From NCBI GenBank assembly GCA_016882195.1, contig VGLU01000004.1:5572-69571 (forward strand): a stretch of DNA of 64,000 bases, in the 5' to 3' direction. The stretch comes from Thermoproteota archaeon. Lineage in GTDB: Archaea; Thermoproteota; Methanomethylicia; Methanomethylicales; Methanomethylicaceae. Made by a program: the position numbers and the translations under genes. The notes beneath the pieces are model-generated. The model saw only the letters and a program-made list of their open reading frames with translations, did no database searches and was not told the origin of the DNA. Positions within the stretch are counted from its first letter, which is position 1. Each line of letters begins with the position of its first letter. This document shows positions 1 to 52,802 of the stretch, in pieces.

Positions 1-464
1 CGATTGAAAATAGGGAAGCGATCGTTATCGAAGATATTAAAGGAATACGCAAGTTGTATCAGAAGGGCAACGGTCAGGGTCGCAGATATAGGAGTATGAT
101 GAATTCTTGGTCATTCGGAGAAGTTCAGAGACAGATAGAGTACAAAGCAAATTGGTCAGGCATCCCAATTATTCGCCTAACAAAAGGCGAGACGATGGGC
201 ACCTCAACCATCTGTCCAATATGTGGGGAGAGACTTCTGAATGGACGGAACAGGATGTTGTGGTGTATTTCATGTGGTATGAAAGCGGATCGAGATGTGG
301 TTGCGGTGATCAACCAGTCTCGAAGGGGACGGGTGAGGTTCGCACGTTCCCTGCCCACTGATAAAGGGGCGAAAGGCGGGGCAGTTGAAGCTGTGATGGG
401 GAACCCGACGACTACGGTAATCCTCGGAGTCGATGCCCTGAAGTTGAGTCATCAGAAGACTTGA
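1..464 (+). CDS. tnpB: IS200/IS605-family TnpB (OrfB) C-terminal part; 5' end lies off-window
   Basis: C-terminal zinc-finger/RuvC-III region (CPICGERLLNG...WCISCGMKADRDVVAVINQ). Near-identical at protein and DNA level to the C-terminus of the full TnpB at 42063..43283. Confidence 0.8.
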   Translation, partial: IENREAIVIEDIKGIRKLYQKGNGQGRRYRSMMNSWSFGEVQRQIEYKANWSGIPIIRLTKGETMGTSTICPICGERLLNGRNRMLWCISCGMKADRDVVAVINQSRRGRVRFARSLPTDKGAKGGAVEAVMGNPTTTVILGVDALKLSHQKT

Positions 465-473
465 CAGAACCCG
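1..473 (+). mobile_element. TnpB-only IS element copy A (partial; right end ~461-473 TTGACAGAACC)
   Basis: Shares a conserved ~90-nt right-end block (GGGAACCCGACGACTACGGTAATCCTCGGAG...CTTGACAGAACC) with the copies at 12846-12925 and 43197-43273. Similarity ends right after TTGACAGAACC. Confidence 0.6.
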
Positions 474-12530: not shown

Positions 12531-12925
12531 GTTCTGTAAAGACTTCGTCGGATTTAAATACCTAATCTAATTGCGGGGGCGAGGCGAAAGGAGGCTACAG
12601 GGCTGATCCTAGGCTCATTTCAATTAATTGACTGCAGCGAAACGAGGAATCGCATCAACTGTACGCCCGATATGTGGGGAGAGACTCCTGAATGGGCAAG
12701 GTTGCCGTATGAGGCGTTCATACGGAATGGAGGCAGACGGGGACGCGGTTGCCATGATGAAACAGCCCTGAGGGGGCGGTTGAGGTTCGACCGTTCCCTG
12801 CCTTTAAACGATAAGGCGAAAGGCTGGGCAGTTGAAGCGGTGAGGGGGAACCCGACGACTACGGTAATCCTCGGAGCTGATGCCCCGAAGTCGACTGTTC
12901 GCCAAACGGAGAGTTGACAGAACCC
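12531..12925 (+). mobile_element. MITE-like internally deleted derivative of the TnpB IS (left end + tnpB 3' end + right end, no nuclease ORF)
   Basis: Left-end motif TGTAAAG..TCGTCGGATTTAAATAC matches 42008-42036 upstream of the full copy. Positions 12660-12925 match the tnpB zinc-finger region and right end of 43007-43273. The only ORF is an 81-aa frame-degraded remnant. Confidence 0.55.
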
Positions 12926-28127: not shown

Positions 28128-28700
28128 TTGTTCAGGGCTTTTATACTCAAGGCCTCCGAGGGGCGGACAGCCCCTGACTTCTCTTTGAGGTCCTTGGCAG
28201 GTCCCGGGAGGATGGACCTGATAGCAAGGTGCATAGTCGCATCCTTTTACACGCTGGAGGGTCCAAGGAGGGACACGGCGCTCACCGTTGTTTTGGAGGG
28301 ACCGCCGGACCCACCAGTTTCACTTACCTTTGACGGAGAGAGGATGCGGCGTGCGCCAGTAGGTGAGGTTGGGGCGGCGGAGATAGTATTCGACGTGCTC
28401 TCCGGTAAAAAAGTGGAGGGCGTCAGGAAGGAGCGGAAGGGGTTCGAGAGGGTCGCCTCCGAGTATAGGGAGAGGGGTTTCTCGTTGTACTACCTCCACG
28501 AGGAGGGGGAGGACTCTTCCAAGGTGAGGTTCGAGGGGAGTTCTGCGTTCATATTGGGGGATCAGAAGGGGCTCGACGCGGGGAGCGAGCGCTTCCTCGA
28601 TGAGGTCAGGACGAAAAGAGTGAGCCTGGGTCCCCACTCCTATCTGGCGAGCCACTGCATAGCAATCATTAATAACGAACTTGACAGATTAGAGAGGTAG
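28128..28700 (+). CDS. trmY: SPOUT-class tRNA methyltransferase of the TrmY (DUF358) family
   Basis: ILGDQKGLD...VSLGPHSYLASHCIAIINNELD. Confidence 0.6.
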   Translation: MFRAFILKASEGRTAPDFSLRSLAGPGRMDLIARCIVASFYTLEGPRRDTALTVVLEGPPDPPVSLTFDGERMRRAPVGEVGAAEIVFDVLSGKKVEGVRKERKGFERVASEYRERGFSLYYLHEEGEDSSKVRFEGSSAFILGDQKGLDAGSERFLDEVRTKRVSLGPHSYLASHCIAIINNELDRLER

Positions 28701-38443: not shown

Positions 38444-41400
38444 CTACTGGGAGAAGAATTCCAGTCTCTTTATCCCCACGATCTCATCGAATTCTATGCC
38501 GAGAGCCTCGAGGACCTGCCCGAAGGTGGACTCTATGTGTCCCACGTATTTGTCCACATCGATCTCGTCTATCCTTGCCAGCTGGACCGGCTTAACGCCC
38601 AGGCCGCCCTGAACCTTTACGAAGGAGATTATGTCGCCGGGCTTGACCTCCTTGCCCTTATCCTCCAGCTGTTTTGCCGCCTTCACGTGCTGGGGCGTCG
38701 TCTTATGGTAGCCGGTGAGCGGCCTCGAGAGCATCACCTTGAAGGTCAGCTCGTCCAGGGAGAAGCGCCTGTTCTTAAGCCTTGTGTAGCAGTTCTGCAC
38801 GATCCCCTTTATCCTCGCCTTGGCCCTCGCGAAGTCCTGCGGGGTCTTTACCTCCTTCAGGACCTGGGTCATCTCCCCGAATGCGGACTGGATGAAGACG
38901 GGGGTGTTCCGCTTCTTCCCCATCAGCCCTTTTATGTCCACCACGCCGTTGTCCATGACGCCGAGGTAGTTCTTCTTCCTTCCGGAGAAGGTAACGAAGG
39001 TGTACCTCTTGTCCACCTCGAGGTCGATGCCGAAGCTTGATTCCGCCCAGCTGAGGAGCGCTCCTATCTGCTCCTTGGTGGGCTGGTACAAAAACAAACT
39101 ATCGGTGTCGGCATATATCACCTTGACTCCGGATTCTGTGGCCTTTTTGATGGTCTCAGTTATTATGTGCCTGCCTATGGCGGTGGTGCTGTCGGCCATC
39201 GAGAGGCAGTAGAGCGGGAATATCTCCGCACCGAAGACTCCGTAAGACTGCCCACAAGGGATTAATCTGCCATTGCGGCCAGCAAAGACAGTGTGGTTCT
39301 TTTTTGTAGTTATACAGTAAACTTGTCCATTGTATGGCATCTTAGTTTTTTTCCAATGATCTGTGTGTTGATTTATGTTTCTCCAAGTTATTCTAAATAG
39401 CTTAGCACCCTCATCATAGAATCGCCTTGATGAAGAAGCAGATGATGTCTTAAGCTTCGGGACGACGAAGTCTATCGCGTTGTATATCGCCTCTGCTGTA
39501 ACAAACCTGACTCCCCCGTTTTTATGGTCTGCGACAATGAATCTATGTTCTGGAGTGACGATCAGATCAGTAGATCTTCCGTTCTTGAAATGTAATAGAT
39601 CACCATTATAGTCGAATACCTGTGTCTCCACAACCTCGTCCACTTCTGGTTCGAGGGTAGCCGGATTTACGTTGATTACTTTGTCACCAATGTTGATATC
39701 CTTTACATTCTTTACACCATTGGTTGTGAGTATATCGGTGTCGCCTGTGAAACAAGCATTGAGGAAGACCTTAAGGGCCTGTTGCACGACCTTGTACCAG
39801 TCCCTCTCCTCCTGGGTGAGGGCGGGATCCTTGGACTTTGCCTTGAACCACTTCACCCTGACATCCTTCAGCAAGCCTATGATCAAGGCCATCAGCCCCA
39901 GCCGCTTTGTGCAGACCCAGTGTTTTGTGTCCGGGACCACGTTGGTCCGGCAGGACTCGTGGACGCACCTTACGGTCTCGTAGCTGAGGTTCCACTTTGC
40001 GATTATGCTGGGGTACAGGCTTGCAAAGTCCAGGACGACCACATCGAAGTAGACGTTGGACTCGGGCTTTATGACTATGGCGCCGTGGTACTTCTTCCCC
40101 TTGATCACCGCTGTTGTGGAGGCCTCTCCCTTCATGGCTTCTATGTCGCTCTCGCGGGGTATCAGACAGTTTCTTGCTCTGTGCTCAAAGAAGAATAGGC
40201 CCCTTATCCAGCGGGATATCCCTTGGCGCGTTACGTCCTCCATGGAGAGACGGGAGATCCTCATTATCATGGTGATGAGGTTCATTACCATGTTTGAGTT
40301 CTCGGTGGTAAGGCGCAACGCTATGAGGGAGTCCCTGAAGCAGTAGGACGCCAGGTCAAGGTAGCTGAGCTCGGAGACGGTCTTCTCTATCTGGATCTTC
40401 TTGATATTGAGGAGGGAGCTTGCCACGGCGTCGAGGGCGACCTCCCTGTATGAGTTTCCGAAGGCGTAGATCTGTATGGCGTGGTTGTGCATGAACTTGT
40501 AGAGGTCTATGTGTACCCCTGTGGGGAGGAGGGCGATCTCCCTTCCCATTATTATGGGGACCTCCTCCTTCTTCATGCCCAGGACCTGCGCGCGCCGCCA
40601 GAGGTAGTGGAGGTCGAAGTTGTCGCCGTTGAAGGTGATCACGATCGGGTAGTCCAGGAAGTACTTGAAGAGGAGCTTTATGAGGGACAACTCCTCCTCG
40701 AAGTACTCCAGCTGAACATCTTCCGGGAGTTCTGGGGGCCTGATGCCCTCCTCCACACCCATCCTCTTGAGGAGGAGGACCTTCCTCAGGCCGTCCGATC
40801 CAGCGAGGGATGCGCATATCACTTGGTTCCTGGCCACGCTCGGGTCAGGGATCCTGTCCAGCGCCTCCGTGGCCACCTCGATATCCACTGCAACGCGGCG
40901 GTAGTCGGGCACAGGGCTGATGAAGAGCGGGAACCAATCTGTGAGGGCGCTGAGGAGCTCGGGGGGTGACCTCTGGAATCTCTCCCTTATCGGCTCGAGA
41001 GGGACGGAGGGATCCTCCTTGACGAGGTTGCCGTCCTTTATTCGGTAGGAGTATCCCGGGATGAGCCCACGGTCGTAGATGTAGCAGTCGTGGTACCGGA
41101 TGTTGTCCTCCCAGGAATTCTGCAGAAGGTCCCTTATGTTGCGCCCACGGCCTCCTATGGAGAGGGGATCCCTGGCAACGACCTTTGTCATCCCTATCCT
41201 CTTGTCGTGGAGGGGGTCGTACTTCTCCACCTCTACTGTAGATTTTCTGTCGAAGCCGGGGTGGGATGCGATCTGCCTGTCCGAGAGGACCTCCTTGAGA
41301 GGAGTGTCGGTGAGGCAGTAGGGGAGGTGTCCTGTGTTGTCGTACCAGAAGACGGTTTTGCCCTTCTCGAGATCGTAGAGTTTCAGCAGCGCCTTGGCCC

Positions 41401-41704
41401 TGGAGCCGCTGTACGTGACGGAGAGCAGGGAGAGGGGACCCGCATTCTTTGGGGTCTCGGCCTCGAAGATGGTCCTCTCGACGACCTCCTCCTGCTCGGG
41501 TCCCTCGGCATACTCTTCTGGCCCCAGTTCCTCCGGCTCTGCCTCCACTTCATCGTAGGGCTCTTCTTCGGGATACTGCCCCTCCCTCTGGGAGGTTTCC
41601 TCGGCTTTCTCTGCCTTGACAGGTTCCCTCCGGGGGCTCTCGGGGGGCTCGGATGGTTTCGAGTCTCCCTTCTTGCCGGGCATGAACCTATCAAGACTTA
41701 CCAT
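38444..41704 (-). CDS. polB: family-B DNA polymerase containing a mini-intein in motif B and an acidic N-terminal extension
   Basis: Exo I VAVDIEVATE, motif A LDFASLYPSII, motif C IYADTDS. Motif B is split as KVFLNA|intein|SYGVFG. Confidence 0.9.
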   Translation of the reverse strand: MVSLDRFMPGKKGDSKPSEPPESPRREPVKAEKAEETSQREGQYPEEEPYDEVEAEPEELGPEEYAEGPEQEEVVERTIFEAETPKNAGPLSLLSVTYSGSRAKALLKLYDLEKGKTVFWYDNTGHLPYCLTDTPLKEVLSDRQIASHPGFDRKSTVEVEKYDPLHDKRIGMTKVVARDPLSIGGRGRNIRDLLQNSWEDNIRYHDCYIYDRGLIPGYSYRIKDGNLVKEDPSVPLEPIRERFQRSPPELLSALTDWFPLFISPVPDYRRVAVDIEVATEALDRIPDPSVARNQVICASLAGSDGLRKVLLLKRMGVEEGIRPPELPEDVQLEYFEEELSLIKLLFKYFLDYPIVITFNGDNFDLHYLWRRAQVLGMKKEEVPIIMGREIALLPTGVHIDLYKFMHNHAIQIYAFGNSYREVALDAVASSLLNIKKIQIEKTVSELSYLDLASYCFRDSLIALRLTTENSNMVMNLITMIMRISRLSMEDVTRQGISRWIRGLFFFEHRARNCLIPRESDIEAMKGEASTTAVIKGKKYHGAIVIKPESNVYFDVVVLDFASLYPSIIAKWNLSYETVRCVHESCRTNVVPDTKHWVCTKRLGLMALIIGLLKDVRVKWFKAKSKDPALTQEERDWYKVVQQALKVFLNACFTGDTDILTTNGVKNVKDINIGDKVINVNPATLEPEVDEVVETQVFDYNGDLLHFKNGRSTDLIVTPEHRFIVADHKNGGVRFVTAEAIYNAIDFVVPKLKTSSASSSRRFYDEGAKLFRITWRNINQHTDHWKKTKMPYNGQVYCITTKKNHTVFAGRNGRLIPCGQSYGVFGAEIFPLYCLSMADSTTAIGRHIITETIKKATESGVKVIYADTDSLFLYQPTKEQIGALLSWAESSFGIDLEVDKRYTFVTFSGRKKNYLGVMDNGVVDIKGLMGKKRNTPVFIQSAFGEMTQVLKEVKTPQDFARAKARIKGIVQNCYTRLKNRRFSLDELTFKVMLSRPLTGYHKTTPQHVKAAKQLEDKGKEVKPGDIISFVKVQGGLGVKPVQLARIDEIDVDKYVGHIESTFGQVLEALGIEFDEIVGIKRLEFFSQ
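39248..39754 (-). other. 169-aa mini-intein (no homing-endonuclease domain)
   Basis: Begins CFTGDTDIL (block A), has TPEHRF (block B) and VYCITTKKNHTVFAGRNG (block F). Ends ...LIPCGQ followed by Ser. Removing it restores K-x3-N-A-S-Y-G. Confidence 0.7.
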
Positions 41705-41971: not shown

Positions 41972-42004
41972 TTTAGTCCCTCGCTGTTTATATTATTTAT
42001 CAGA

Positions 42005-43273
42005 TTTTGTAAACTTTTCGTTGGATTTAAATACATGACCAATTGTTGGGAAACCATAATTTGTGATAGCTATAAAGAGTGTAAGGCAACGTTACATTCC
42101 ATCATGTATAATACTATGCTTAATGGAGCAATTCAGACTCATGATCAATGAGTGTATAGAAATAGGTATGACGAGTAACATTTCTTCGCTGAAAGCGCTC
42201 TCTATGAGGGCATATCATAAACTTGAGCCTTATAATGTGCCATCTTACTACAAGCTTTGTGCCATTTCAAGAGCGGCAGTGATTCTTACGTCAAGAAGGA
42301 AGTCGCTACGAAGGGGCATGCCGACTAAGAGCCCTTACGTCATGCGGCGGCATCTTACCTCATGCTATGGATTCAAATTCATCGGTAATGCTATAAGAAT
42401 ACCGGTGGGGCATAGAGAGTTCTTTGAAATTGAGTTAAACAAACACACTCAAGAGATTCTCTCCGACCCTGCCTTGAGGGTGCGTTCCTTTACACTAACG
42501 AACACCCATTTGAGCATCTGCTACTCGAAGGATGTTCAGGAACTGGAATGTGCAGATATCGCTGGCTTGGACAGAAATCTGAGAAACATCACCTATGGCA
42601 ACGATCAGCATGTAGTAAAATACAACCTATCAGAAGCAGTTAAGATAGCCAGGCGGACGAGCAAGATCATTGCTTCCTTCAAAAGGAAGGACATGCGGAT
42701 AAGGAAGAGGATAGCGTCGAAGTATGGACGGAGACAAAGGAACAGGGTCAACCAACTGCTTCATAATACAACCAAAGACATTGTTGAAAGGGCGTTTGCG
42801 AAAAGGGAGGCGATAGTTCTTGAGGATATTAGAGGCATTAGGAAATTGTATCGAAAGGGAAACGGACAAAGTCACAGATACAGAGGCATAATGAACGCTT
42901 GGTCATTCTGCGAGGTGCAGAGACAGATAGAGTACAAGGCGAAATGGAAAGGCATCCCAGTAATGCGCCTATCCAAAGAGGAAACTATGGGCACCTCCAC
43001 CCTCTGCCCGATATGTGGGGAGAGACTCCTGAATGGGCAATATATTAGCCGCCAGTTGTGGTGTCCTTCATGTGGAATGAAAGCAGACCGGGACATAGTT
43101 GCTGTATTAAATCAATCGCATAGGGGACGGGTGAGGTTCGCCCGTTCCCTGCCATGTGATGATAAGGCGAAAGGCGGGGCAGCTGAAGCTATGAGGGGGA
43201 ACCCTCTACGGATGGAGGTAATCCTCAGAGTCGATGCCCCGAAGTCGAGTCATGATAAAGACTTGACAGAACC
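42005..43273 (+). mobile_element. complete TnpB-only IS200/IS605-family element copy C
   Basis: Left-end motif TGTAAAC..TCGTTGGATTTAAATAC (shared with 12535-12563), tnpB, right end ending CTTGACAGAACC. Lies 38 nt upstream of a tRNA gene. Confidence 0.65.
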
Positions 43274-43283
43274 TAAGCTTTAA
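42063..43283 (+). CDS. tnpB: TnpB (IS200/IS605 OrfB)
   Basis: 406 aa with RuvC-like core and zinc finger CPICGERLLNGQ...WCPSCGMKADRDIVAVLNQ. Confidence 0.85.
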   Translation: MIAIKSVRQRYIPSCIILCLMEQFRLMINECIEIGMTSNISSLKALSMRAYHKLEPYNVPSYYKLCAISRAAVILTSRRKSLRRGMPTKSPYVMRRHLTSCYGFKFIGNAIRIPVGHREFFEIELNKHTQEILSDPALRVRSFTLTNTHLSICYSKDVQELECADIAGLDRNLRNITYGNDQHVVKYNLSEAVKIARRTSKIIASFKRKDMRIRKRIASKYGRRQRNRVNQLLHNTTKDIVERAFAKREAIVLEDIRGIRKLYRKGNGQSHRYRGIMNAWSFCEVQRQIEYKAKWKGIPVMRLSKEETMGTSTLCPICGERLLNGQYISRQLWCPSCGMKADRDIVAVLNQSHRGRVRFARSLPCDDKAKGGAAEAMRGNPLRMEVILRVDAPKSSHDKDLTEPKL

Positions 43284-43311
43284 ATTAACCTTTATGAGGA
43301 AATAGACGAGG

Positions 43312-43424
43312 GGGCCCGTCGTCTAGTCAGGATTAGGACGCAGATCTCGCAGACGTGACGGTTTTGCGAGGGCGTAAGCCTGCGGAGCCTGAAGTCCTGG
43401 GTTCAAATCCCAGCGGGCCCGCCA
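43312..43424 (+). tRNA. intron-containing tRNA (~34-nt intron in the anticodon arm); probable tRNA-Arg, anticodon ambiguous (GCG or CGC)
   Basis: Acceptor GGGCCCG/CGGGCCC, discriminator G, encoded CCA. D-arm has A14, GG, A20. T-loop GGGUUCAAAUCCC. Two possible 7-nt loops, CUCGCAG and CUGCGGA, flank the extra 34 nt. Acceptor and D-arm closely resemble the tRNA-Arg(CCG) at 45970-46061. Confidence 0.65.
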
Positions 43425-43435
43425 ACCTTCTGGCG

Positions 43436-43908
43436 TTTGGGTGGGAGAAGCTTGGATATCGCGGTGCTGAAGGATCCTGGAAGACATACTCAGACAGGGA
43501 TTTCGTGCTGAGGGGGATCGACCTCACGGTTGGGGAGCTGGACTTTATCATTATCAAAGGTAGGTCTGGCGCAGGGAAGACAACGCTGCTTAGGATCATG
43601 GGGCTACTAGAAAAGCCGAGCAGGGGCAGCGTCGTTCTATTCGGCAGGTAGGCGGGCAGTCTGAACGATACGCAGGCGTCGAGTATACGGCGGGATGGTA
43701 TAGGGTTCATCTTCCAAGATCTTAACCTCATCCCCCACCTGACAGTGCTCGAGAATATTGAGATCCCAATGTACCTGAAGGGGGTGCCGGCCGGCGAGAG
43801 GAGGATCAGCGGGTTGGAGCTACTTGAGAGGTTCGGCCTTAAAGATCTCGCCGAGCGCTACCCATCCGAGCTTAGTCAGGAGGAGAAGCAACGGGTCGCA
43901 GCATGAAT
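43436..43908 (+). pseudogene. degraded ABC-transporter ATP-binding gene (frameshifted, truncated before Walker B)
   Basis: Across two frames: ...WKTYSDRDFVLRGIDLTVGELDFIIIKGRSGAGKTTLLRIMGLLEKP...stop, then ...IGFIFQDLNLIPHLTVLENIEIP...PSELSQEEKQRVAA-stop. The N-terminal LDIAVLKD piece is in a third frame. Confidence 0.5.
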
Positions 43909-44015
43909 AATAATGAAGGCAGTAAGAAGGCGTAAAATCGCAAAACTTTCATCGCCCGTACGTATGCTTAAGTTTTTAAGATAAATTGCTATGAGAGAGT
44001 GCTGGAGGCTTAAAT

Positions 44016-45962
44016 TTGGACGGTAACCCCTTCGGGGCTTTCAGAGAGGAGTGCCTATCCATACTAAGAGACGCGTTAGGTGAGGAAGGGGTTGCCATAA
44101 CTGAAGGGGAGATCAAACTCACAGTGCCGCCCGACCCCTCCCATGGTAACCTCAGCTTTTCCACGCATACCACGGCGAGGAGGGCAGGGGTGGAACCGAG
44201 GGCCCTAGCTGACAGGATCGTTGAAAGGGCCAAGGACGCCCAGAAGAGGCTCGTTGCGAAGGTGGAGGGGGCCGGGGGCGGGTACGTCAACTTCTTCATC
44301 AACGAGACTGAATTTGCTGAGCTGACGCTGAACTCAATAACCAGCATGGGCAAGGACTACGGATCCTCCAAGGGGAACGGAGAGAAGGTGATCGTGGAGC
44401 ACACGAGTGTCAATCCGATTCACCCCATCCATATAGGGGGTGCTAGAAACGCCGTGATCGGGGACTGCCTGTCTAGGATACTGAAGGCGGCGGGGAACGA
44501 TGTGAGGAGGCACTTCTATATTGATGACGTGGGGCTCCAAGTGGCGCAGGCCAGTTACGGGTTCGGTAAGATCGGCGGGGTGGCAAGGGAAGGCAAGAGC
44601 GACCACCTAATAGGGTTCATCTACGCAACCACAAGCTGTGCCATGAACATAAAGGCGCTGCGGGCTGAGATAGAGAGGCTCAAATCCAAGGGAAAGGACG
44701 AGGATGCAAGACAGAAGATCATGGAGCTGGACGACTGGGTAGGGGCGGCCTCGGATCTGAGGGCAAAGAACGAGAAGATGTTTGACGCAATATCTGGATC
44801 AATCATGTCCACGGAGGACCCAGAGGCAGAGGTTGCCGGACTGCTCAGGAGGTACGAGGAGAGGCACAAGGAGGCTGTCAGGCTCATTAGGGGGCTCTCC
44901 GAACTCGCGCTGGCAGGGTTCAAGGAGACTTTGAGAAGGGTGGACATTGAGTTCGACAGCTGGGACTGGGAGAGCGAGCTGGCCTCATGGAGTGGAGAGG
45001 CAGATAAGGTCGTTGAGAGGCTCTCGAGGACGGACTTCGTAAAGGTGGAGGAGGGCACGGTCATCCTTGACGCCGAGCTCACGGCCAAGAGGTTCAACCT
45101 CAAGGAGAGGTACGGCATAAAGACAGAGGTACCGCCGCTGACGCTGAAGAGGTCCGACGGGACGACGCTCTACACCACAAGGGATATCGCCTACACCCTT
45201 TGGAAGTTCGAGAGGGCGGACCGGGTGATCAACGTCATATCCATCGAGCAGAGGCTCCCCCAACTGCAGTTGAAGCTGGCGCTCTACGCCCTCGGCGAGG
45301 GTGAGATGGCGGAGAGGCTTACGCACTTCAGCTACGAATTGGTCCACCTGCCGGGATACAAGATGTCCGGTAGGAGGGGGAGGTACGTGACATTCGACGA
45401 CGTCATTGACGAGGCCGTGGAGAGGGCTTACAGGGAGGTCTCTGTGAGGTCGCCCCACCTCAGCGAGGAGGAGAGGAAGGGGATCTCGGAGCTGGTGGGC
45501 GTGGGATCCGTGAGGTACGCACTGATAGCGGTGGCGTCCAACAAGCCGATAACGTTCACGTGGGAGAGGGTGCTGAACTTTGAGCAGAACAGCGCCCCCT
45601 TCATCCAGTACTCTCACGCTAGGGCGAGCAACATCCTCCTGAAGGCGGAGGGCGGTTGGAGGGAGGGAGGTACACCGGACTATGGCTCGCTCAACACGAA
45701 GTACGAGCACGACTTGATAGTACGGCTCGGCTCCTTCCCGGAGACCGTGGAGGAGGCGGCGAGAACCCTGAGGCCCGAGATGATAGCGGAGTACACCAAT
45801 GATATGGTGTCCAAGTTCAACCTCTTCTATGACAACGTGCCAGTACTCAAGACGAAGGAGGGGGGCGCGAGGAGGGCGAGGCTCAGGCTTGTTGAGGCGA
45901 CAAAGACGGTCCTCGCCAATGCACTCTGGCTCATTGGGATAGAGGCCCCGGCAAGGATGTAG
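44016..45962 (+). CDS. argS: arginyl-tRNA synthetase
   Basis: Class I HIGH-like HPIHIGGARNAVIGD; 648 aa. Confidence 0.9.
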   Translation: MDGNPFGAFREECLSILRDALGEEGVAITEGEIKLTVPPDPSHGNLSFSTHTTARRAGVEPRALADRIVERAKDAQKRLVAKVEGAGGGYVNFFINETEFAELTLNSITSMGKDYGSSKGNGEKVIVEHTSVNPIHPIHIGGARNAVIGDCLSRILKAAGNDVRRHFYIDDVGLQVAQASYGFGKIGGVAREGKSDHLIGFIYATTSCAMNIKALRAEIERLKSKGKDEDARQKIMELDDWVGAASDLRAKNEKMFDAISGSIMSTEDPEAEVAGLLRRYEERHKEAVRLIRGLSELALAGFKETLRRVDIEFDSWDWESELASWSGEADKVVERLSRTDFVKVEEGTVILDAELTAKRFNLKERYGIKTEVPPLTLKRSDGTTLYTTRDIAYTLWKFERADRVINVISIEQRLPQLQLKLALYALGEGEMAERLTHFSYELVHLPGYKMSGRRGRYVTFDDVIDEAVERAYREVSVRSPHLSEEERKGISELVGVGSVRYALIAVASNKPITFTWERVLNFEQNSAPFIQYSHARASNILLKAEGGWREGGTPDYGSLNTKYEHDLIVRLGSFPETVEEAARTLRPEMIAEYTNDMVSKFNLFYDNVPVLKTKEGGARRARLRLVEATKTVLANALWLIGIEAPARM

Positions 45963-45969
45963 ACTTTTA

Positions 45970-46061
45970 TGGCGGGCCCGGAGGGATTCGAACCCTCGAC
46001 CATCGACTATCTCCGAGATCACCGGAGGCCGACGCCCTGATCCAGACTAGGCCACGGGCCC
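45970..46061 (-). tRNA. tRNA-Arg(CCG) with a 13-nt intron at canonical position 37/38
   Basis: Acceptor GGGCCCG, U8, D-arm GCCU/GGGC with A20, anticodon stem UCGGC/GUCGA, loop CU-CCG-G[intron UGAUCUCGGAGAU]A, T-arm GAGGGUUCGAAUCCCUC, discriminator G, encoded CCA. A 3-nt bulge AUA contains the 3' splice site next to a CUCC/GGAG helix. Confidence 0.8.
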
Positions 46062-49647: not shown

Positions 49648-50325
49648 ATGCCGGTGAACTGGATGAGGGTGAGGGTAAGTCCTAACGATCATGAGTGGAT
49701 ACGCGAGATCGCCGAGGTCGTGAGGGCAGGTGGGGTTATAGTCTATCCCACGGACACGGTTTATGGTATAGGCGGCGACCCGTTCAATGTGGCAACGGTG
49801 AGGAGGGTGCTTGAGATAAAGAGGAGGGGGGAGAGGCAGATGCCAGTCCTTGTCTCCGGAGAGGATAAGGCGAGGTTGGTGGTGGAGGTTGACGCCACGG
49901 CCCTCTCGCTTATGGAGACTTTCTGGCCCGGGGCTCTGACGATCGTGCTCAAGAAGAGGACCGAGGTACCGAGCGAACTTACTCTTGGCGGGGGGAAGCT
50001 CGGGGTCAGGATGCCCAACCACGAACTGGCCCTAAGGATCATTGAGGCGTGCGGGGGGGTGCTGATAGGAACCAGCGCGAATATCTCAGGCAACCCGCCA
50101 GCAAGGAGCGTGGAAGAGCTGGATAGCAGGGTGGAGGGGAGCGCGGATGTAGTGGTCGACGGAGGAGAGGCGACGTTAGGGGTCGCCTCGACCGTTGTTG
50201 AGGTTGGCCCCCCAGAGGAGGATAGACCGGCAAAGGTGATCGCGCCCAATGTCAGGGTTCTTAGGGAGGGGGCCATCGGCGCTGATGTTATTAGAGCTAA
50301 GCTGTTAGAGAGGCATGGAGGGTGA
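49648..50325 (+). CDS. L-threonylcarbamoyladenylate synthase (YrdC/Sua5 family, short form)
   Basis: VIVYPTDTVYGIGGDP...LLIGTSANISG motifs. Confidence 0.8.
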   Translation: MPVNWMRVRVSPNDHEWIREIAEVVRAGGVIVYPTDTVYGIGGDPFNVATVRRVLEIKRRGERQMPVLVSGEDKARLVVEVDATALSLMETFWPGALTIVLKKRTEVPSELTLGGGKLGVRMPNHELALRIIEACGGVLIGTSANISGNPPARSVEELDSRVEGSADVVVDGGEATLGVASTVVEVGPPEEDRPAKVIAPNVRVLREGAIGADVIRAKLLERHGG

Positions 50326-52235: not shown

Positions 52236-52802
52236 CTAGCGGTAGAGGTCTGATAGAGCCACCCTCTCCAGTATCAATGACTTCAGCGCCTCCAGTTTTG
52301 AGGCTGAGAGCTGCTCGGACACGGCTAGTTCGTTCTTGGTTATGCCGTACTTATGGATAAGGACCTGGAACTTGTCCTCTGTGAGCCCCACCAAGCGCTC
52401 ATCCTCCGACCCGTACCGCATGAACATTTTACCTACGGTATTAAGCCCTGCCCGAGAGTTGGAGAGGACTATTACGACCCACCCCCGAGAGCCCTCTGTG
52501 ACCCCGGCGCTACCTATGGCTTCCTTGATCTGTCGCCTTCCGGATGCGTAGAGCATAACCTCCGTAGCCGGGGAGTGAGCAAGGCCTCTCCTTGCGTTCC
52601 ATGCTTTAACGGAGAGAAGGGCGGCCGTGAGAAGGTGTTCGTACCCTGCCACGGACTCAGCCCCAAATATCTGGACGCTTACTTCAGGATCGGATGAGAC
52701 TGATTTGAGGACTTCCTGGACGGAGCAGGACTGGTTTGGTCTTATCCCCATCACCAAGAGGTAGCGAAATCTGGAGGCACCTCCTAGATTGAATATCTGC
52801 AT
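52236..52802 (-). CDS. Cgi121-like KEOPS subunit (tentative)
   Basis: MQIFNLGG N-terminus and ASGRRQIKEAIGSAG motif recalled from Cgi121. Confidence 0.45.
   Translation of the reverse strand: MQIFNLGGASRFRYLLVMGIRPNQSCSVQEVLKSVSSDPEVSVQIFGAESVAGYEHLLTAALLSVKAWNARRGLAHSPATEVMLYASGRRQIKEAIGSAGVTEGSRGWVVIVLSNSRAGLNTVGKMFMRYGSEDERLVGLTEDKFQVLIHKYGITKNELAVSEQLSASKLEALKSLILERVALSDLYR

Follow-up and report, generated by a model that had tools for sequence, protein, structure and literature searches.

Which transfer RNA (tRNA), if any, is encoded directly upstream of the arginyl-tRNA synthetase (ArgRS) gene argS of a Thermoproteota archaeon? We analyzed a window of 64,000 nucleotides (nt), the whole stretch of DNA given here, in which argS is situated between two tRNA genes. 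The downstream gene is tRNA-Arg(CCG). The upstream gene at 43312 to 43424 carries additional nucleotides in the anticodon arm and could be read as either alanine or arginine tRNA. An earlier interpretation from the letters of the window (here referred to as the sequence-only reading) preferred tRNA-Arg(GCG) with an intron 5' of the anticodon. Our analysis leads to the same assignment: with high confidence, 43312 to 43424 represents a functional tRNA-Arg(GCG) gene with a 34-nt intron of the bulge-helix-bulge (BHB) type at position 29/30, inside the 5' strand of the anticodon stem. This is based on the only splice motif of its kind in the precursor, a perfect spliced product, the intron site of the orthologues and covarying helices.

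The plus strand from 43312 to 43424 contained a complete tRNA with 34 additional nt in the anticodon arm. The precursor reads GGGCCCG-UC-GUCU-AGUCAGGAUUA-GGAC-G-CAG[34 nt]GC-CUGCGGA-GCCUG-AAGUC-CUGGG-UUCAAAU-CCCAG-CGGGCCC-G-CCA. Its acceptor stem consists of 7 bp (GGGCCCG/CGGGCCC), with discriminator G73 and an encoded CCA. The D arm (GUCU/GGAC) encloses the D loop AGUCAGGAUUA with A20 right after G18G19, and the T arm is CUGGG-UUCAAAU-CCCAG. An A20 in the D loop is an identity element for ArgRS. The canonical acceptor, D-arm and T-arm and the 34 extra nt had already been described in the sequence-only reading, as had G3:C70, G73 and the two alternative 7-nt loops CUCGCAG and CUGCGGA; all of them were found here. 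The gene is composed as follows.

43312 to 43343, plus strand: exon 1 of tRNA-Arg(GCG), positions 1-29, with the acceptor 5' strand, D arm, C27, A28 and G29 (in-silico splicing followed by ARAGORN; covariance model match).
43344 to 43377, plus strand: predicted BHB intron of 34 nt at position 29/30, AUCUCGCAGACGUGACGGUUUUGCGAGGGCGUAA (sole strict motif; local minimum free energy structure; same-site introns in orthologues).
43378 to 43424, plus strand: exon 2, positions 30-76, with the remaining anticodon arm, variable loop, T arm, acceptor 3' strand, G73 and CCA at 43422-43424 (in-silico splicing; covariance model).
43382 to 43384, plus strand: anticodon GCG, positions 34-36, in the loop C32 U33 G C G G37 A38 (spliced product; the Rfam tRNA model and a purpose-built model agree).

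Neither ARAGORN with default settings nor Rfam at its gathering threshold detected this gene; both reported only the tRNA at 45970-46061 on the minus strand. In E-value mode Rfam gave a partial tRNA match of 20.3 bits on the 3' half of the upstream gene only. Run in intron mode (-i), ARAGORN named it tRNA-Ala(CGC), assigning 34 nt to the intron and leaving an A:C mismatch in the anticodon stem. That the gene escapes simple tRNA finders or is taken for alanine is due to the place of the intron, inside the anticodon stem and not beside the anticodon.

In archaea, tRNA introns are excised at a BHB, in which two 3-nt bulges are separated by a central 4-bp helix (H) and flanked by the helices h and h'. 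The BHB geometry was calibrated on the downstream tRNA-Arg(CCG) and the upstream precursor was then scanned exhaustively, with at least 2 bp demanded of both h and h' (strict hBHBh'). A single full hBHBh' motif was present in the precursor, and it excises 43344-43377 between G29 (43343) and G30 (43378). A strict BHB therefore exists for the GCG alternative, and the case of no BHB for either alternative, against which the sequence-only reading had advised a motif search, does not apply. The motif and its parts are:

43334 to 43382, plus strand: hBHBh' splice motif (strict scan, local minimum free energy structure, covariation).
43334-37 with 43379-82: outer helix h, 4 bp, UAGG/CCUG.
43338-41 with 43372-75: central helix H, 4 bp, ACGC/GCGU.
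43345-53 with 43363-71: inner helix h', 9 bp, UCUCGCAGA/UUUGCGAGG, closed by the loop 43354-62.
43342 to 43344: bulge 1, A43342 and G43343 before the cut and A43344 after it.
43376 to 43378: bulge 2, A43376 and A43377 before the cut and G43378 after it.

The same BHB structure was obtained as the unconstrained minimum free energy (MFE) fold of 43328-43391. Chance gives such a motif very rarely: a BHB of equal quality arose in 0 of 3000 shuffles of the intron and in 1 of 3000 shuffles of the whole sequence. The 4-bp helix CGCA/UGCG, which the sequence-only reading had taken for an anticodon-intron pairing, was not retained. Its CGCA belongs to h' (UCUCGCAGA/UUUGCGAGG), and the proposed pairing conflicts with h', is not conserved and is absent from many orthologous introns.

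Removal of the intron resulted in a 79-mer with all stems fully paired, a flawless cloverleaf that ARAGORN called tRNA-Arg(GCG). The anticodon stem of this product, CAGGC/GCCUG, comprises five Watson-Crick pairs, and its loop C-U-GCG-G-A shows U33, C35 and a purine at position 37. A tRNA of this type would read the codons CGC and CGU.

From these elements a maturation pathway can be proposed. The central helix ACGC/GCGU would arise from pairing of the exon 1 terminus (D-stem 3' strand, G26 and C27) with the intron 3' end, and the exon nucleotides U20b-G23 would pair with C31-G34 as outer helix. The intron would fold on itself into the 9-bp inner helix, thereby exposing the 3-nt bulges AGA and AAG. 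EndA, the tRNA splicing endonuclease, would cleave 3' of G43343 and 3' of A43377. An RtcB-type ligase would join the exons, restoring the stem CAGGC/GCCUG and the loop CUGCGGA, with the predicted mature junction GACGCAG directly followed by GCCUGCGGA. In line with known archaeal tRNA maturation, RNase P and RNase Z would trim the ends, and ArgRS would charge the product by recognizing A20, C35 and others.

To place the gene in a wider context we compared 80 argS loci from genomes (L002-L081) and additional metagenome contigs. The ArgRS of the window was 82% identical to that of one metagenome-assembled genome (MAG), 62-69% to those of Methanosuratincola and Methanomethylicaceae and ~48-50% to those of Bathyarchaeia; an identical ArgRS was found on a Logan contig of run SRR7008372. 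Judged by ArgRS similarity, the source organism falls within Methanomethylicia (Verstraetearchaeota). In 31 of the 80 genome loci, from Methanomethylicia and Bathyarchaeia, a tRNA-Arg(GCG) was located upstream of argS on the same strand at a distance of 0.2-3.7 kb. Across both groups this synthetase gene has thus long been linked to cognate tRNA genes.

Most Bathyarchaeia copies of tRNA-Arg(GCG) were intronless and agreed with the spliced product of the window at 72/79 nucleotides (91%). A covariance model for which only 17 intronless orthologues were used matched 43312-43424 end to end (75.1 bits, E ~1e-16) and placed the anticodon loop on CUGCGGA. As side observations, the tRNA-Arg(GCG) genes of L030, L035 and L048 contained canonical introns of 28-32 nt at 37/38. 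Three Bathyarchaeia-type orthologues (L056 ~1240-1370, L076 1028-1142 and L078 3392-3496) showed insertions in the D-arm region, for which the strict BHB scan resolved no motif.

Every Methanomethylicia copy that was recovered carried an intron at 29/30, with lengths from 15 to 62 nt and a common H helix and bulges. The set of 20 distinct sequences was drawn from 9 full-length genome loci, from L008, which is truncated inside the intron, and from 21 metagenome contigs. The metagenome contigs came from a scan with the exon pattern, which matched 35 contigs: 21 true orthologues and 14 chance matches in coding DNA. The latter served as negative controls, and a BHB was absent from all 14 of these matches in non-tRNA DNA. 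The contigs L083, L091 and L104 contained a 34-nt intron identical to that of the window. Representative genome loci are:

L018: 29/30 intron of 16 nt.
L020: 29/30 intron of 15 nt.
L004: 29/30 intron of 27 nt.
L006: 29/30 intron of 40 nt.
L053: 29/30 intron of 54 nt.
L012 1023-1178, L013 1019-1174, L014 1719-1839 and L021 2002-2156 (Methanosuratincola): 29/30 intron of 27-62 nt and, additionally, a canonical 15-nt intron at 37/38.
L008 1-85 (Methanosuratincola): begins inside the first intron, so that the 3' part alone is visible.

On the two-intron genes of Methanosuratincola ARAGORN was inconsistent; L014, for example, was called Leu(GAG).

Covariation was counted on an alignment of 18 distinct splice-junction regions. 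Standard pairs occupied 94.8% of the cells, versus 27-55% when the partners were slid, and all six scored h' pairs (6/6) had changed on both sides in a compensatory manner. H and h were nearly invariant because exon nucleotides take part in them, and the tRNA exons themselves hardly varied among the Methanomethylicia orthologues. The first pair of H was A:C or A:G in two sub-lineages (A:G in Methanosuratincola), which represents a mildly relaxed motif.

Several points weigh against a functional, spliced tRNA-Arg(GCG). The formation of the BHB needs an opened D stem: as H and h occupy nucleotides 20b-27 and 31-34, D stem and BHB are incompatible, and the precursor would have to be spliced in an alternative fold and then refold. 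Splicing in an alternative fold with subsequent refolding is usual for non-canonical introns. The MFE structure of the whole precursor (-49.0 kcal/mol) was neither the cloverleaf nor the BHB, and enforcing the BHB gave -46.9 kcal/mol. No EndA gene was present among the 26 of 61 open reading frames (ORFs) of the window that were scanned with Pfam; it could lie outside the window. Furthermore, an insertion sequence (IS) has replaced the sequence directly upstream of a TATA-like element of the gene, and promoter strength could be affected. Finally, cleavage, ligation and arginine charging of this tRNA are steps that we infer from the general course of archaeal tRNA maturation.

Could the gene instead be a pseudo-tRNA, i.e. 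a tRNA-Arg(GCG) inactivated by the 34-nt insertion, disturbed by the IS and possibly decaying like the adjoining pseudogene of an ATP-binding cassette (ABC) transporter? Its surroundings and the failure of the standard finders, including Rfam at the gathering threshold, would fit this explanation, since an IS and a pseudogene remnant flank the tRNA:

42001 to 43274, plus strand: TnpB-only element of the IS200/IS605 type, 1274 bp, boundaries +/-1 nt (TnpB domains; five empty-site contigs; 3' end common to two copies).
43275 to 43311, plus strand: tRNA upstream region with the TATA-like TTTAAATT at 43279-43286 (-33 to -26) (junction comparison).
43440 to 43905, plus strand: remnant of an ABC-transporter ATPase pseudogene between tRNA and argS (Pfam ABC_tran on the first part; translation).

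However, the geometry of the insertion is precisely the one needed by the splicing endonuclease, and a flawless tRNA remains once the insertion is taken out. In addition, the site is occupied in every Methanomethylicia orthologue (46-82% ArgRS identity) and the helices are kept by compensatory changes; a conserved site with such changes points to purifying selection on splicing. The near-invariance of the exons and the preservation of the upstream TATA-like element speak against decay as well. We therefore consider a pseudo-tRNA very unlikely.

The 37-nt upstream stretch including TTTAAATT was conserved in IS-free relatives. The tRNA-Arg(GCG) promoter, in which the TATA-like element has a putative role, is probably intact.

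A tRNA-Ala(CGC) with a 34-nt intron at or beside the canonical site in the anticodon loop appears even less probable, and we regard it as extremely unlikely. Apart from the ARAGORN call in intron mode, it is favoured by the fact that CAGAU can be followed by a 7-nt loop CUCGCAA/G. However, a splice at 37/38 has no BHB, as CUCG at 32-35 cannot pair with the CUGC needed upstream of the 3' site, and it leaves an A30:C40 mismatch in the anticodon stem. The G3:U70 pair is the identity determinant of alanine tRNAs; the gene carries G3:C70 instead. The alanine splice form was also more distant from the syntenic orthologues, being identical at 66/79 nucleotides compared with 72/79 for the Arg(GCG) product, and orthologous introns in L006, L018, L087 and L110 lacked any CGC pseudo-loop. 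The call was thus ruled out on the missing BHB, the stem mismatch and the lack of G3:U70. The annotation of non-canonical introns as canonical ones is a frequent and documented software error (PMC8450103).

We give next to no credence to a third placement, an insertion of ~35 nt in the D loop (roughly 43335-43369) with the intron 3' end GGGCGUAAGC serving as D-stem 3' strand and anticodon-stem 5' strand: the Infernal alignment to the intronless-orthologue model did put a 35-nt insertion there (posterior ~0.7 over the ambiguous stretch), but the mature tRNA then predicted, reading ...GGAUU-GGGCGUAAGCCUGCGGA..., has an A29:C41 mismatch and two additional G:U pairs, this splice lacks a BHB with flanking helices, and the orthologues with short introns of 15-16 nt (L018, L020) are incompatible with it. 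The sole source of the ambiguity is the similarity of the intron 3' end (GGGCGUAA) to the exon 1 terminus (GGACGCAG), and the placement by the covariance model was rejected on the BHB and stem-pairing evidence.

The two genes downstream of the tRNA-Arg(GCG) were characterized as well.

44016 to 45962, plus strand: argS, arginyl-tRNA synthetase, 648 aa (Pfam Arg_tRNA_synt_N, tRNA-synt_1d and DALR_1; orthologues 46-82% identical).
45970 to 46061, minus strand: tRNA-Arg(CCG) (Rfam tRNA 52.5 bits; BHB; spliced product called Arg(CCG); argS-adjacent orthologues in L002 and others).

The three ArgRS domains bear out the argS assignment of the sequence-only reading. The tRNA-Arg(CCG) gene is composed of exon 1 (46061-46022), a 13-nt intron at 37/38 (46021-46009) and exon 2 (46008-45970), with the anticodon at 46025-46023. 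Its BHB is formed by H CUCC/GGAG and the bulges GGU and AUA, both cut after the second nucleotide. Intron position, BHB and spliced product agree with the minus-strand tRNA-Arg(CCG) with a canonical 13-nt intron that had been proposed before. The anticodon tcg given by default ARAGORN was replaced by CCG after BHB-guided splicing. Both tRNAs share the acceptor stem and discriminator, a similarity that had likewise been pointed out. The tRNA-Arg(CCG) gene is convergent with argS and begins 8 nt past the argS stop codon, and the same layout was found in L002.

The ABC pseudogene contained a Walker A motif, an in-frame TAG at 43649-51 and a C-terminal truncation within the signature motif. It was absent from L089, the closest IS-free relative, and partly present in L104.

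The TnpB ORF of the IS (42063-43283) extends 9 nt beyond the right end of the element. It scored 55 bits with PF07282 (Cas12f1-like TNB) and 58 bits with TIGR01766, both above cutoff, and 95.2 bits with NF040570 guided_TnpB, just below the cutoff of 100. The right end had previously been placed 38 nt upstream of the tRNA; an IS end is indeed located there (43274), as seen from the other copies and the empty sites, but the gap amounts to 37 nt (43275-43311). Empty sites were found in the five contigs without the IS (L083, L089, L091, L101 and L104) and read ATATTTAT directly followed by AAGCTTTAAA. In the window the insertion point reads ATATTTAT, the IS having inserted 3' of TTTAT without target duplication, and the sequence continues after the element with AAGCTTTAAATTAACC.

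Two diverged or partial copies of the IS 3' part were present at window positions 1-471 and 12665-12894 (~76-77% identity). In all three copies, the ~170 nt up to the 3' terminus ...TTGACAGAACC formed a conserved block, a candidate omega-RNA scaffold. In characterized TnpB systems the guide of the omega RNA is taken from the right flank. If this holds here, the guide (AAGCTTTAAATTAACC) would correspond to the TATA-like region of the tRNA-Arg(GCG) promoter.

Elsewhere in the window, a family-B DNA polymerase of 1086 aa (38444-41704, minus strand) showed, between its exonuclease domain and its polymerase domain, weak intein/Hint matches that stayed under the Pfam cutoffs, and it may contain an intein. 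Three tRNA-modification genes were found at 28128-28700, 49648-50325 and 52236-52802, encoding a PF04013 S-adenosylmethionine-dependent RNA methyltransferase, Sua5/YrdC and the KEOPS subunit Cgi121.

Non-canonical BHB introns of crenarchaeal tRNA genes were reportedly treated by Marck and Grosjean in 2003 and by Sugahara and coworkers in 2008. They are well documented in Crenarchaeota and related archaea, and position 29/30 is among the listed non-canonical sites, e.g. in tRNA-Ala(CGC/UGC) of Caldivirga maquilingensis (PMC4090602). tRNAscan-SE 2.0 looks for such introns by default (PMC8450103). The intron of the window resembles the crenarchaeal ones in its strict hBHBh' formed by exon-intron pairing, its site at 29/30 in the anticodon stem and the restoration of the cloverleaf upon removal. 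It is likewise short (34 nt), of the putatively protein-spliced type and from a host of the TACK/Thermoproteota. However, the host belongs to the Methanomethylicia (Verstraetearchaeota) and the isoacceptor is Arg(GCG). Whereas a recently transposed intron family has been described for Thermoproteales, the intron studied here is fixed at one site throughout the class.

With the canonical 37/38 intron of the downstream tRNA-Arg(CCG) it shares the BHB geometry, the cut after the second bulge nucleotide and presumably the same EndA and RtcB. It differs in lying 8 nt further 5', inside the stem. Its central helix uses nucleotides of the D stem and positions 26 and 27, where the canonical one uses anticodon-loop nucleotides, and splicing at 29/30 would need an unfolded D arm. 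The Methanosuratincola orthologues (L012-L014 and L021), with introns at both 29/30 and 37/38 in tRNA-Arg(GCG), are comparable to the multi-intron tRNAs of Thermoproteales, while the gene of the window has the 29/30 intron only. A literature search on tRNA introns in Methanomethylicia/Verstraetearchaeota or Methanosuratincola found no paper describing them. The mechanism and the kind of the intron are already known, and nothing is changed about tRNA splicing.

From its distribution, the 29/30 intron appears to be an old feature that is vertically inherited in the class Methanomethylicia. Its site is fixed and its length and sequence vary freely, which suggests that an old insertion has been kept because precise loss is rare. 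The intron probably has no function beyond needing removal; 34 nt are too few to accommodate a box C/D guide, and nothing that we saw hinted at a different role. It is improbable, in our view, that this ancient class-wide character is no neutral passenger but actively kept by selection, either as a maturation checkpoint, since splicing demands refolding of the D arm, or as a shield of the tRNA gene against integrating elements. The same low probability applies to a separate part of this proposal, in which the neighbouring TnpB element would home by its RNA guide to the tRNA promoter region (TTTAT followed by AAGCTTTAAATTAACC) and thus tie the persistence of the IS to an essential tRNA gene.

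The main value of the finding lies in annotation. The tRNA-Arg(GCG), putatively the only standard-pairing reader of CGC and CGU in this lineage, is invisible to default ARAGORN and Rfam. Since the gene is missed or called Ala(CGC), automated annotations of Methanomethylicia MAGs may list a missing arginine isoacceptor and a spurious alanine gene. Moreover, the 20 distinct orthologous introns and the intronless outgroups represent a clean case, from outside the Thermoproteales, in which a non-canonical tRNA intron has apparently been passed on vertically over a long time.

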